DNA of 62,983 nucleotides, the filler included, from Octopus bimaculoides (Eukaryota): NCBI RefSeq assembly GCF_001194135.2. It is 9 parts of 9 records of this genome, joined end to end, with 100 filler letters (N's around TTAATTAATTAA, not from the genome) between each part and the next. Parts side by side here need not be neighbours in the genome. Positions count along the whole stretch, not along the records: positions 4,950 to 15,561 come from NC_069004.1; positions 15,662 to 24,678 come from NC_068990.1; positions 24,779 to 29,426 come from NC_068981.1; positions 29,527 to 39,664 come from NC_068993.1; positions 39,765 to 52,135 come from NC_068987.1; 4 more parts are not named here. One strand, written 5' to 3'. Positions 8,556 to 50,953 of this stretch are shown here, piece by piece. The notes under the pieces were generated by a model. The model had not been told where the DNA came from and ran no database searches. It saw nothing but the letters and a program-made list of their open reading frames with translations. The position numbers were made by a program, and so were the translations under genes. How positions within the stretch are numbered: position 1 is the stretch's first letter; each line of letters starts with the position of its first letter.

Positions 8556-8976
8556 TGTGTGTGTGTGTGTGTGTGTGTGTGCATATATATATATATATAT
8601 ATATATATATATNNNNNNNNNNATATATATATATATATATATATATATATATATATATATATGGGCACAGGCGTGGCTGTGTGATAAGAAATTTGCTTTC
8701 CAACCACATGGTTCTGGATTCAATCTCACTGTGTGGCACCATGGATATGTGTCTCCTACTATGCCCTTGGGCTGACTAAAGCCTTATGAAGTGGATTTGG
8801 CTGGCAGAAACTGAATGAAGCCCTTTGTGTGTATGCGTGTTACTGTTTCCTTACCTTAATACCATGTGATAGTTGTAAACAAATGTCTCTGATCTATATT
8901 TAAGAGATGGGGAACTATGTACATTATTTACATTATTTACAATTGACGGATATTTTTCTTTATCTTGTTTGTTGTT

Positions 8977-9022
8977 AACACAATATTTCGGTTGATGTAC
9001 CCTCCTGCCTTCATCAGGTGTC
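8977..9022 (-). ncRNA. Decayed minimal type-I hammerhead ribozyme motif
   Basis: GACAC-CUGAUGA-A-(ggcag..caacc, broken stem II)-GAAA-UAUU-GUGUU. Confidence 0.55.
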
Positions 9023-9311
9023 TTGAGGAAATTTCGAACCTGGGTTCTCATTCCTAAGGTACTTTTCGATGTTGTTGTTGTTGTTGTTGTTCTTCTTCTT
9101 CTTCTTCTTATTATTATTCAGGTCACTGCCTGGAATCGAACTCGGAATCTTGGGGTTAGTAGCCCGCACTCTTAACCTCTACGCCATATGCCTGGGTACT
9201 AACCCCAAGATTCCGAGTTCGATTCCAGGCAGTGACCTGAATAATAATAATAATAATAATAATATTGAAAAATACCTTAGGAATGAGAATCCAGGTTCGA
9301 AATTCCTCCAA

Positions 9312-9357
9312 GACACCTGATGAAGGCTGGAGGGTATATCAGCCAAAACATTGTGTT
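9312..9357 (+). ncRNA. Decayed minimal type-I hammerhead ribozyme motif
   Basis: GACAC-CUGAUGA-A-GGCUG(gagggUaUaU)CAGCC-AAAAC (G12 to A)-AUU-GUGUU. Confidence 0.6.
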
Positions 9358-46779: not shown

Positions 46780-49240
46780 TATTTTAAGGAATTTCATGGA
46801 AGTTTTCTTTAGCCACGTGTGCAAATCCAATTATGTTGCGATTATGTATGTGGGTCATGAGTCAATAATTAGATCGATCTCTGTAAAAGAATGTGATAAC
46901 ATGCAACTCTAAGAGGTACAAGAACGCAAGTTACTTGTTTAATACCAACACATATATGGAGTTGGATTTATTCAGATTAATATATGAGGGTAATTTGCTG
47001 ATAATTAGTGAAAATAGAGCGATGAAATGACTTACCGATACCATACATTTTACATATAGAGTTTCACTTGTATAGAAGCAGAAACATTATAGCCGTGTAT
47101 ATTTACGCTGTGGGCATAAACGAAAACAGGGTATTTCATTGTAATCATTCTTATTTGTCACTTTGTCTTTGATTTTGAAAACTTACTGGAAAAGTGCGAA
47201 ACGGACTTTCACCAAATTCGGCATAAATACTCATTGGGTGAGTGGCTCGAAATGTTAAAATTTCGGTTTGGTTATCTTCAAACATGCATAAATACAAACA
47301 TTAATATGCGATTGTATGTGTGTGTTCATATGCGTGTGTGTGTGTACGTGGTATGTGTGTGTGTGTGTGTGTGTGTGTGTGTGTGTGTGTGTGTGTGTGT
47401 GTGTGTGTGTAGGTGTGTGTGTGCAGTGATGCATTCGAGGGTTTCATTTATTTACGAGTTGATTTCTTAATTTCATCGGAGTATAAATACCTCCCATAAT
47501 GATACTTGAAAAAATAAATGGAATAATTCAGTTCAGTTAAAGAAACATGGGTAAGCAACGCAATGTACGCCACACGATACTTTGCGAAAGAAATGATCTG
47601 CCTTCAAGGTATGCATTGCATTCCCTACCCCATGCCTTTGTTTTTTTACATTTTTAATTTTATCTTTTATTTATTTCATGCATTGGAATGCAGCTATACT
47701 AGGACACTGCTGTGTAGCGTTTTAGTTGGACAGATAAACCCCTGTATTTATTTTATAGATTGGTATCATGTCTAAAGCTTCTATTGCCAAACTGCTAACG
47801 TACTGTATTTTCTCAACAAAACAAAAGTACTGCATTCATATAAACGATATGTGCATGGCAATACCAGTATATATCCACAATATTTCTTATGAGTGTCTTT
47901 GTTATATATGATACAGACCAGAGTTTTCAGTATAATATTTTAAAGGAAAACCTTGACACCACTGTCTAGGTATCTTCGAGGCAATATAAGATCTATGCTC
48001 AGGATCGTTGCTATTCAAATCTTCAGCTAATATAGCGGCAAATGCAAGTAGTTGAATCACCGAATTCCTTATGAACTATTGAAACTTAGTTCCAGAAGGA
48101 CGACGTTTGCTTATAAAAGTCTTGATAATATAGGTAATTTTATTCTTTGAAACGAGTAAATATTTTCGGTGATAAATTTTACCTGCAGTTAGTTCGGGTT
48201 AATCAAGGTGTAATTAATGAGGTCTGGCTATTTTGTGAATTACCCGACATGGCAAGCCACCTTATTCATCTAAGTGACTTATGCGAGACATCCTGAGCAC
48301 TTGCAAACATAATTGCTGATTCTGTATGTTCATGAGTGTTTCCAACATTTTGTGATCAAAGGGTTTTTCAGTAGAATTATGGAGGTATAACGAGAGATTA
48401 TATTAAAATACATTGGGTATCCTCATATAACTGAGAATACTTTCATTCCTCACAGAAACATAGCCAATAGAACTTACATGGAGTGGTGCGGAATAAAGTA
48501 ATTCCCAATTGGGTGCAGTAGTGCTACCAATAAAATTTGGTACGCCAACAACATGTTGCTCTATCTAAATCTGAAATGTTTTGGAAATATAATAGATAAG
48601 GGAGTAAACTGACGCAAAATAGCATTACTATTAATCAGCTATAATTTAGAATACAGTAAAAAATAATAAGACCCAAACAGCATCTGATAAACTGTTAACA
48701 AAAATATTTCAGCTTTCTAATTTTCGAAAGAGAAACTAGATCTTCTGTCGAGATAATAGTACATTAAATTCTATGTACAATTCATCGGCTTCATACAATA
48801 TCGAAAGTGCGTAACATTGCCATATTGAGAAAGGTGCATCCAGTATAATCAGCAAACTATTTGAATAAACACTCATGATGTTTAATCTCTACAATGTTGT
48901 GAATTTATAAGTCACTTACACGAATACGTTGGCTTGCAATATAAATCCATTGCATTATTACAGAAAACTTTATCCAAAAAGCCTGAAAGCATAGACTGCG
49001 TTGTATCTGTATTAAAGGCTAGTCGCTCATCCGCTATTTATTGGAAAGTGAAAGAAAGTGGAATAGGATGAATACTTAATGCGACTGTTACGTTCAGCAA
49101 AAAAAAAAATATATATATATATATATATTTTAGATGGTAAAATATAGGGGTCACAATTTCATGGCGGTAAAAATTTAATGCAACATGGCATACACTGAAA
49201 ACCGCTTGTTTGGTAAGACATTTCAATTTGCATGCACCTT

Positions 49241-49450
49241 TCAATCCAGTGCTTTTTTGCAGACTATGTTCTTCGTATAAGCTCTTCTACTTCTTTTCCC
49301 TTGTTTGACAGTGTTGACAGCTTTAAATCTCACATGAGATAATCTGCGAACACTTGTGAATGCAACATATAGCTGACCATGACCGAATACAGGTTCAGGC
49401 AAGAACGGCCTCAGTTTATCAAATGTCTGCCCTTTTGATTTATTGGGATT
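49241..49450 (-). pseudogene. Helitron Pif1-like helicase C-terminal fragment
   Basis: NKSKGQTFDKLRPFLPEPVFGHGQLYVAFTSVRR...YTKNIVCKKALD* matches the INKSQGQT...VFSHGQLYVAFSRV motif. Confidence 0.9.
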
Positions 49451-50884
49451 TATCTCATTCAAAAGTGAATGGTAAATTTGCGATGTGCATGCAGTAAGTG
49501 ACAGGTGATATAAAACAATTAGTTCAATAAAAAAATTACTTTTCACTTTGCACTCAACACCACCACCACCATTACCATCATCTATCTCCCTTTCTCTCTC
49601 TCTAACTCTCTTTAATCTCACTGTCAGAACATCACTCCTTTTGCTAAAATTGTATTCCTATCACTTCTCTATATCACTACCTTCCACTTATATATTTTAA
49701 CTTCAGTATAAATATTACATTCCCCCTACCACGTCATGGATGCTTCTTTCCCTCCTTTCTCTATCCTTTTATTTTCACTTGCCCTCGCATTCCATTTCAC
49801 TAATCACATGAAAGCGTTACAATTACGTTCCCTCTGCCTCGTGTCATCGTCTCTTCTCTCACCCTCATTTTCTCTCTCCCCTTTTACTCTACTCACGTGA
49901 CGGGCTACGTAACCTAAAGAGAAGCAAAATTATTATAAGATTATTAGACATCTTAATGATGAAGTTTGTTGGAGTTAATGATGATTTTAATCAGTGATAC
50001 AGAGATTGAAGTTTAGAGGTGGAGCGCGGCAGCCTCGCAGAATAAAGCATGCAGCATAAATTTTATCTAAATTGATATACTGAAAATATAAAGAAAAACA
50101 AAAACGAAAATAAGATTTATGTTTGTAGCAAGAAGGCAGTCATAATTATATTACACGGCGCATTTTACTATATCAAACGGTACCACATCTAATAATCCTC
50201 CACCTCACTATTACATTATTACATGATAAAAAAATAAAATATACAAAAAAGCTTGACCTAGAATATCCCAAAAGAGTGGTTATTCTACAATTCACATCAT
50301 GGGCAATCGTTGCTTTAAAGTTTCACCAATTTGATGATTTCAGAACTCTTAATAGCACTGTAACATTTTTGATACAAACAGAAGCAAGGAAATTTGCAGT
50401 GTACATAAACACAGGGACCGTGATATATGTAACTATATATCTATTCATAGGTATAATTATATATATATATATATATGTATATNNNNNNNNNNNNNNNNNN
50501 NNNNNNNNNNNNNNNNNNNNNNNNNNNNNNNNNNNNNNNNNNNNNNNNNNNNNNNNNNNNNNNNNNNNNNNNNNNNNNNNNNNNNNNNNNNNNNNNNNNN
50601 NNNNNNNNNNNNNNNNNNNNNNNNNNNNNNNNNNNNNNNNNNNNNNNNNNNNNNNNNNNNNNNNNNNNNNNNNNNNNNNNNNNNNNNNNNNNNNNNNNNN
50701 NNNNNNNNNNNNNNNNNNNNNNNNNNNNNNNNNNNNNNNNNNNNNNNNNNNNNNNNNNNNNNNNNNNNNNNNNNNNNNNNNNNNNNNNNNNNNNNNNNNN
50801 NNNNNNNNNNNNNNNNNNNNNNNAGTGAAGAATTTCACTGGAAAAGAAGATATAAGATTGCCAGGTTTTTGTCTCTCTCGCCAA

Positions 50885-50953
50885 GGTCAGCAGCTATCGA
50901 ACGCCGACGAAGGGAAATAACCCTGAAATCCGGATCCGTTCGTGCTGCAGATC
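50885..50953 (+). ncRNA. Near-intact minimal type-I hammerhead ribozyme
   Basis: Stem I CGAACG/CGUUCG extended by GCAGC/GCUGC and GGUC/GAUC; core CCGACGA (U4 to C); stem II AGGG/CCCU; GAAA; palindromic stem III AUCCGGAU; AUC triplet with predicted cleavage after 50936. Confidence 0.8.

Follow-up and report, generated by a model that had tools for sequence, protein, structure and literature searches.

The minimal type-I hammerhead ribozymes of Penelope-like elements (PLEs), the anatomy of PLE insertions, and the existence of non-autonomous PLEs are already known. The hammerheads described from the pseudo-long terminal repeats (pseudo-LTRs) of metazoan PLEs have no real helix III, a palindrome at positions 15.2–16.2, a short helix I, an unpaired base after A9 and a G10.1–C11.1 pair; they are predicted to act as dimers and are found mostly as lone copies, with some opposite-strand pairs 100–700 bp apart (Cervera and de la Pena 2014, PMC4209133). 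Insertions of PLEs are hallmarked by a second copy, inverted and 5'-truncated, that adjoins the 5' end, and by a tail of 30–40 bp on one end (Craig et al. 2021, 10.1101/2021.04.23.441226; Goubert 2022). Here, these systems are compared with a 62,983-nt stretch of the genome of Octopus bimaculoides (RefSeq assembly GCF_001194135.2; nine parts joined with filler, below called the window), which contains six minimal hammerhead motifs. All of the motifs are likely end-pieces of PLEs. The repeat carrying the first two of them joins a transfer RNA (tRNA)-like head to a Penelope-type 3' end and is probably a short interspersed nuclear element (SINE) of the RNA polymerase III type mobilised by PLE enzymes. 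It is this element, pairing a tRNA-like head with a PLE-type hammerhead-bearing 3' end, that appears to be new; no such pairing was found in print.

The hammerheads of the window share with those of metazoan PLEs the features listed above (the extra base and G10.1–C11.1 in motifs 1 and 2), including the opposite-strand pairing of some copies. At the same time, the latter are carried by repeats that belong to coding elements or to what is left of such elements (PMC4209133), whereas the unit of motifs 1 and 2 is short and has a tRNA-like head of its own. The endonuclease-bearing PLEs and the non-autonomous Chlamys elements, e.g., MRC1, show the same inverted 5'-truncated copy and one-ended tail, as well as a variable target duplication and non-autonomous forms sharing the 3' end; unlike the window family, the non-autonomous forms are described, in the accessible text, without a tRNA-derived head, and most Chlamys and Naiad elements lack hammerheads (Craig et al. 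2021). Other systems are similar from the SINE side. Thus far, SINEs were described as parasites of long interspersed nuclear elements (LINEs), and tRNA- or 5S-headed parasites of LTR elements were recently added (Kojima 2024). In octopus, SINEs make up ca. 40% of the transposon content, and the tRNA-derived octopus SINEs reportedly described by Ohshima and Okada (1994) resemble the window family by their tRNA-like head, short length, very high copy number and octopod host. The SINE-like repeats Sm-alpha and Sj-alpha of Schistosoma are also short and non-coding, with a polymerase III-type promoter followed by a hammerhead, but they are arranged in tandem, are freed by an active hammerhead and lose the promoter in single copies (reviewed in PMC6765202). 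The window family, in contrast, is dispersed, keeps the head at its 5' end and an apparently uncut hammerhead inside, and displays PLE-type inversions and tails. Metazoan non-LTR retrozymes are likewise non-coding and bear a type-I hammerhead, with PLEs suggested as their movers (Cervera and de la Pena 2020, PMC7229834), and they were termed a possible new type of SINE (Goubert 2022; PMC7229834). They differ in having canonical hammerheads, tandem arrays and circular RNA, none of which was seen for the window family. The giant squid genome paper lists 235 hammerhead-1 loci.

The preliminary description of the window reported the six motifs from about five repeat contexts. They are indeed present where it placed them, each with the order stem I – core – stem II – (G/A)AAA – palindromic stem III – NH – stem I, and they fit the known PLE-type minimal hammerheads. 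They are numbered 1–6 by the position of C3: 9017(-), 9317, 24862, 25355, 37990 and 50904. The count of about five contexts is correct, since motifs 1 and 2 belong to one insertion: they are the two arms of a single 530-bp insertion between 12-bp target duplications. Its features are as follows.

8881–8892 (+): left target-site duplication of 12 bp, an exact match to 9423–9434, with only two copies in the window.
8893–8919 (-): 3' tail of 27 nt, on this arm alone and absent from the plus arm; loose contig ends at 8893, 8920 and 8923.
8920–9058 (-): body of the full-length arm, homologous to the PLE-type terminal repeat of a sister family (contig depth; alignment with sister copies L001–L003).
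8977–9022 (-): motif 1, a decayed minimal type-I hammerhead with C3 at 9017 and the predicted cut after 8982 (descriptor scores; family majority letters).
9059–9118 (-): trinucleotide linker of AAT, AAG and AAC runs between head and body (the read tool masks 9060–9123).
9119–9192 (-): tRNA-like head with the A box at 9186–9176 and the B box at 9141–9133; the 5' end of the family is at ca. 9192.
9194–9422 (+): inverted, 5'-truncated, tail-less second copy made of the final part of the head, (AAT)8, the body and four 9-mer repeats.
9312–9357 (+): motif 2, a minimal type-I hammerhead with C3 at 9317, its G12 and the CG of stem III altered by CpG-type transitions.
9423–9434 (+): right target-site duplication, beyond which the host SINE resumes.

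The flanks of the insertion are two halves of another SINE, and a single copy of the duplication restores the 20-nt spacing of two paralogous copies of this host SINE (counted by eye). The unit, ca. 280 nt long and non-coding, consists of the tRNA-like A/B-box head, the (AAT)n linker, the hammerhead-bearing body and a tail of ca. 30 nt. The combination of an inverted truncated copy, a one-sided tail and a target duplication is the pattern of a PLE insertion. The preliminary description overlooked this main point: it mentioned neither the tRNA-like head nor the tail, and neither the target duplication nor the inverted order of the two copies. Its statement that the copies have decayed chiefly by transitions holds for 11 of the 15 differences between the two arms, and the CpG decay it mentioned is evident as minority variants at the CpG adjoining GAAA (places 8989 and 8990). 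At nine of the ten places where the minus arm deviates from the family majority letter, the plus arm retains it.

The family was characterised with contigs of four sequencing runs (DNA of three organisms and one RNA) out of 24 listed, compared with 8860–9205 at 80% likeness. The DNA runs of the three organisms contain 71–84% of the words of 8893–9433 and yielded 20,943, 25,225 and 24,262 matching contigs. In six RNA runs the share of these words was 7–11%, which possibly stems from the trinucleotide run and is not counted as evidence. The summed depth peaks at 4.3–5.0 million over the head and at 5.2–6.5 million over the body, the bins of the outer flanks remaining below 900. Contig counts and summed depth do not equal copy number; they suggest a family of tens of thousands of copies or more. 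Overall, the repeat is likely one of octopuses and very abundant there. Its exact DNA pattern had no match in viral contigs and metagenome contigs of the JGI, and the head was found in neither of two prokaryote records harbouring the sister repeat (see below), which contain little animal DNA, so this absence carries little weight.

The ends of the family are marked by the places where the matching part of the contigs stops. Loose ends at 9192, the 5' end, were recorded in 178, 243 and 261 contigs of the three organisms, and those at 8893, the 3' end with the tail, in 385, 377 and 456 contigs. The tail-less 3' end is represented by loose ends at 8920 (90, 77 and 105) and 8923 (68, 72 and 81). 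Hence, there is one 5' end and two classes of 3' ends, with and without the tail, and the loose-end consensus adds ca. 4 nt to the 27-nt tail. Among the 15 listed joints (62 more lie beyond the listing), eight connect the 5' end of the head (9190–9194) with positions 8931–9042 of the body on the opposite strand. In several of these inverted joints, the short side is exactly as long as the stretch that separates the joined position from a 3' end (39 for 8931, 42 for 8934 and 36 for 8955). The recurrence of such joins implies that the inverted 3'-terminal partner is a trait of the family, and that head and body share one template.

The A and B boxes of the head are 45 nt apart and constitute the sole A + B pair of the window under the pattern used, a strict one, fixed after an earlier version had missed the head. 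Shuffled windows contained 0.09 pairs on average, and none of 5000 shuffled heads passed. Within the window, the head occurs only in the insertion of motifs 1 and 2. Its matches in phages were weak (E 0.2–2), with tRNA genes as the top three of five. The sense strand of the unit contains no run of four T, i.e., no T4 terminator. By its 5' A/B-box head and its short, non-coding, dispersed and high-copy nature, the repeat displays the features of tRNA-derived SINEs (SINE2), and the ca. 280-nt unit lacks the frame with reverse transcriptase (RT) and GIY-YIG domains that marks an autonomous PLE.

For motifs 1 and 2, it is the family, and not the letters of the two copies, that provides the confirmation. 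In accordance with the preliminary description, the family majority retains CUGAUGA and GAAA together with a stem II of 5 Watson–Crick pairs; at all five deviating places (8984, 8985, 8992, 8997 and 9006) its letters restore this stem and GAAA-CG-UU. The resulting hammerhead, with the unpaired base after A9, G10.1–C11.1 and palindromic 15.2–16.2, represents the perfect minimal form as depicted in PMC4209133; its palindromic stem III reads A-C-G-U. The core of CUGANGA and GAAA with NUH is intact in the family majority and in motif 3. In motifs 2, 4 and 5, as single copies, G12 is changed to A, and the core of motif 6 is intact save for the change of U4 to C. The extra base after A9 and G10.1–C11.1 are present in motifs 1 and 2; in motifs 3 and 6, the first pair of stem II is, by their best parse, A-C or A-U rather than G10.1–C11.1, and in motifs 4 and 5 it is of the G-C type or mismatched, without the extra base. 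The predicted minimum-energy fold of the dimer is the active one for motif 6, while the decayed copies of the other motifs are predicted to fold otherwise. The predicted cut site of the window copy is separated from the 5' end by 211 nt and from the end of the tail by 89 nt. Neither end of the family coincides with it, and only one of the eight listed inverted joints (8978) falls within 3 nt of it; therefore, the inserted RNA was likely uncut.

Further evidence comes from a sister repeat. A spurious reading frame over motif 2 retrieved 88 look-alike proteins, the best of which, P0002, is annotated as Octopus bimaculoides. One frame of the hammerhead repeat is often open, and protein databases, including UniRef, contain the repeat as spurious uncharacterised proteins (P0002 and 87 others). 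Most of the 88 derive from the related sister repeat, to which a rough pattern assigned 57 of the 70 units located, and a further search gave 170 proteins, of which 120 were listed. Wherever a protein contains both orientations, the antisense one precedes the sense one (7 of 7 among the 88 and 21 of 21 among the 120 listed, one protein being in both sets) and never the reverse. The sister copies align with the body in the window from a point 5' of the hammerhead to the tail, one copy being tailed and another tail-less. Five proteins of the sister family extend in frame beyond the tail into a reading frame common to all five, which presumably resembles the N-terminal domain of Penelope/Poseidon, a likeness confirmed by no tool. 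In one other protein, the repeat is followed by an RVT_1 piece (E 3e-7). Overall, the sister repeat suggests a partner element with RT and GIY-YIG domains sharing the 3' end; such an element was not found. The RT piece of P0140 matched telomerase RT and one other RT at E 0.03–0.04 at best, and the RT frames near the sister copies in L003–L006 displayed none of the PLE-type motifs sought. The sister-family alignment gave no confirmed match in viral and JGI metagenome contigs, and P0001 had no match among longer proteins.

The sister repeat also forms tandems with a period of ca. 43 codons (129 nt), which in P0003, P0004, P0008, P0010, P0012 and P0093–P0096 restart just before the hammerhead. 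Hammerheads spaced by 129 nt could pair in cis and free a monomer, so the sister family may be retrozyme-like. Its DNA copies sit in animal-like contigs within two prokaryote records, G001 and G002. The contigs in question, L001 (G001:C16) and L002 (G002:C19), are AT-rich, filled with repeats and of the animal type; hence, both records are contaminated. Contigs C3–C19 of G002, a bacterial record, contain 78 RVT_1 matches, mostly in near-identical frames of ca. 1,158 residues arranged head to tail every 6.4–6.8 kb. These are likely mis-binned animal contigs with arrays of site-specific retroelements.

The following sequence of events would account for the structure of the repeat. RNA polymerase III would transcribe it from the internal A and B boxes through the linker, the hammerhead and the tail. 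The RT/GIY-YIG protein of an autonomous PLE would then recognise the borrowed 3' end, nick the target and prime reverse transcription. The insertion would leave two copies joined by their 5' ends, one of them full and the other inverted and 5'-truncated, with the tail on one end and a short target duplication; such an anatomy is seen in the window, its inversion recurs across the family, and target-primed copying would be expected to yield the inverted pair. The hammerhead (ca. 89 nt from the 3' end) would be copied whole, and, since it lies inside the unit, the template RNA was likely uncut. The single copy lacks a stable stem III and is predicted to cut only as a dimer. The hammerhead is likely a signal retained for recognition or handling by the PLE machinery, or a recent inheritance, and not a maker of ends. 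The chances are evenly balanced for the full form of this proposal: a true polymerase III SINE with a PLE partner, amplified in octopods to at least tens of thousands of copies and possessing a perfect minimal hammerhead that never cuts its ends.

A number of observations weigh against a SINE mobilised by PLE enzymes. No autonomous partner of the motif 1/2 repeat was found: a Pfam search of 225 reading frames of the window, a scan weak on decayed pieces, gave no RT or GIY-YIG match. The shared frame of the sister family was named by no tool (no match at or above 0.9 in the Atlas, none in PDB, a model pLDDT of 46). The RVT_1 piece, one case in 120 proteins, may adjoin the sister repeat by chance, as pieces of integrase and RNase H were found as well. 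The single RNA contig set compared with 8860–9205 gave no matching contigs. Neither ARAGORN nor Rfam calls the head a tRNA. Direct bridges between head and body are few because the read tool masks the linker; they comprise the joints 9049>9138 and 8983>9135 (run X1) and record 24 (9037–9167; run X12). The 9-mer repeats at the end of the tail-less arm also resemble LINE-type 3' ends. Finally, in the test of covariation on five sequences, 86% of cells were paired and three of ten pairs were changed on both sides, a suggestive but not significant result, reached by 53 of 500 shuffles and one that CpG decay can mimic.

The four other motifs, all on the plus strand, are as follows.

24849–24908 (+): motif 3, a lone hammerhead with C3 at 24862, an intact core, a 6-nt palindrome and a weak stem II, between microsatellites (4 of 500 shuffles).
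25299–25436 (+): motif 4, a lone hammerhead (25342–25400) with U4 changed to C, G12 to A and U16.1 to C, capping a long predicted rod (z -3.2; 2 of 200 shuffles).
37984–38037 (+): motif 5, a weak candidate whose score is reached by 136 of 500 shuffles.
50858–50982 (+): motif 6, the best preserved (50885–50953), with U4 changed to C in the core, likewise capping a long predicted rod (0 of 500 shuffles; fold z -6.0).

These are most likely lone, decayed remnants of terminal repeats of other PLE families, lone copies being the usual state of PLE minimal hammerheads (PMC4209133). Accordingly, the density of motifs alone is unsurprising, since such remnants are common in animal genomes (ibid.). The earlier suggestion of several ribozyme families stands for the context of motifs 1 and 2, which is a high-copy family; relatives of motifs 3–6 were looked for and none was found within the window, nor was a convincing target duplication around them. 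The reading frame over motif 6 had no protein match, and motifs 4 and 6 were each absent from both prokaryote records G001 and G002 (the little animal DNA there makes this of little weight). For the monomer of motif 6, the active fold (-6.0 kcal/mol) is predicted to lie 8.5 kcal/mol above the minimum (-14.5 kcal/mol), whereas the predicted minimum fold of the dimer (-32.5 kcal/mol) is the active hammerhead with an intermolecular stem III of 8 bp. The U4-to-C hammerheads of motifs 4 and 6 both tip a long, bulged rod, an architecture unlike that of motifs 1–3 and of the hammerheads described in the accessible text of PMC4209133. Kinship of the two is not claimed, as their alignment score was reached by 17 of 1000 shuffles.

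When scored by descriptors, the six motifs are of uneven quality. A strict hard descriptor is passed by one of them (50904) at 0.015 matches per shuffled window, a relaxed one by two (50904 and 25355) at 0.035 (200 shuffles each), and another hard descriptor by one of the six. The soft score was devised after the motifs had been seen and is hence biased toward them; it ranks them 1, 2, 3, 4, 5 and 7 among 104 candidates. Under the shuffle control proposed in the preliminary description, the motifs stand jointly above chance (seven matches of at least 25.6 vs. 0.33 per shuffle, none of 500 shuffles reaching seven), but singly only 50904 and 24862 are robust. At least one match equalling the motif occurred in 0 of 500 shuffles for 50904, 4 for 24862, 37 for 9017, 42 for 25355, 57 for 9317 and 136 for 37990. 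Motifs 9017, 25355 and 9317 are borderline when scored singly, and 37984–38037 is indistinguishable from chance on its own score and may be a chance match. Two additional weak hammerhead-like candidates with a broken core position were noted, 3412(+), ranked sixth by the soft score (79 of 500 shuffles), and 10696(-) (240 of 500). Of the 288 Rfam matches in the window, the 150 listed include no hammerhead; targeted scans gave none among three matches at 8850–9480 and no match whatever at 50824–51099. Such a silence would be expected for minimal forms. The Rfam microRNA matches in the window are microsatellite artefacts.

One alternative explanation of the motif 1/2 repeat, an unlikely one, is that a tRNA SINE of the ordinary, LINE-dependent kind once acquired part of the terminal repeat of a PLE, with the hammerhead as a passenger and the inversions resulting from LINE-type insertion. 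Indeed, the partners of SINEs are normally LINEs (Kojima 2024). In addition, the final letters of the (9-mer)4 run at the end of the plus arm match the start of the target, and the frames of the window offered no PLE partner. However, the 3' end is present on both arms, which are joined 5'-to-5', and this arrangement recurs in the 8 of 15 joints and in the 7 of 7 and 21 of 21 proteins mentioned above. In twin priming by LINEs, the 5' part is inverted while the 3' end stays single, which counts against a LINE origin of the inversions. A one-sided tail is also described, in the accessible part of Craig et al. (2021), as unseen in non-LTR insertions. It is quite unlikely that the family spreads in the manner of retrozymes, with tandem copies cut at each hammerhead, monomers circularised and propagated by rolling-circle reverse transcription. 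The 129-nt tandems of the sister family and the active dimer fold of motif 6 speak for it, as does the proposal that PLEs move retrozymes (PMC7229834). Yet the ends of the family map to the head and the tail rather than to the cut site, which only one of the eight listed inverted joints (8978) approaches, and the hammerheads of retrozymes are described as canonical and placed in tandem repeats (PMC7229834), whereas those of the window are minimal. The retrozyme and circular-RNA reading put forward in the preliminary description is unsupported: the window contains no tandem array, the ribozyme is internal to the unit and one RNA run gave no contigs.

Highly improbable is the view that the head and the body are separate elements, i.e., a tRNA SINE with (AAT)n at its end and, next to it, an end-piece of a PLE that targets (AAT)n tracts. 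Some PLEs do target microsatellites (Craig et al. 2021), and few contigs bridge the masked linker; nevertheless, head and body occur together in both arms of one insertion, their contig depths are similar, and the 5' end of the head is repeatedly joined to inverted ends of the body, which requires one shared template. As to the four lone motifs (24849, 25342, 37984 and 50885), it is very unlikely that they are chance look-alikes. This possibility draws on the fact that only two of the six motifs pass a hard descriptor, on the post hoc tuning of the soft score, on the frequent equalling of 37990 and 25355 by shuffles and on the lack of relatives. It is opposed by 50904 and 24862, equalled in none and four of the 500 shuffles, and by the location of motifs 4 and 6 in strongly folding regions. 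A SINE mobilised by PLE enzymes, together with lone remnants of other PLEs, is therefore retained as the preferred explanation.

As a whole, the window consists of animal DNA rich in repeats; it includes 5,933 N, numerous microsatellites and several dispersed short repeats. At least three other families of the latter are present, with up to about a dozen copies each (e.g., 361–520, 8661–8835 and 17990–18372). Self-complementary fold-back elements resembling miniature inverted-repeat transposable elements were found at 40541–40871 (ca. 330 bp) and 59755–59880 (ca. 125 bp). A broken mariner transposase is located at 45610–46563 (HTH_48 and Transposase_1 matches); the Pfam search of the window frames gave three mariner matches and nothing else. 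The frames 19294–19740(-), 49244–49657(-), 5364–5840(-), 7564–8070(+) and 14636–15019(+), without a Pfam match, resemble pieces of LINE RT, Helitron helicase and Tc1/mariner elements.

The scattered minimal hammerheads as first reported are real but ordinary, and the novelty lies with the element that carries motifs 1 and 2. It is quite possible that this family is among the octopus SINEs described in 1994, or that it bears a SINE label in Repbase or Dfam. The families described at that time are reportedly named OK, OR1 and OR2. No hammerhead or PLE-type 3' end in an octopus SINE was found in the literature searched, nor was a description of a dispersed tRNA-headed SINE moved by PLEs, most subscription papers being outside the reach of this search. 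A tRNA-headed parasite of PLEs, if true, would complete the set that comprises the parasites of LINEs and LTR elements. It would mean that PLE enzymes carry parasites with small-RNA promoters in trans, and that the hammerhead is a signal of the PLE machinery recognised by protein. The role of the hammerhead in endonuclease-bearing PLEs, described as still unclear, would become directly testable. A monomeric RNA of ca. 280 nt that has a promoter of its own and a single hammerhead inside, and that is represented by tens of thousands of insertions in nature, would serve as a minimal substrate, with which one could ask whether catalysis, the fold or neither is needed, and whether the truncation points fall at the cut site.

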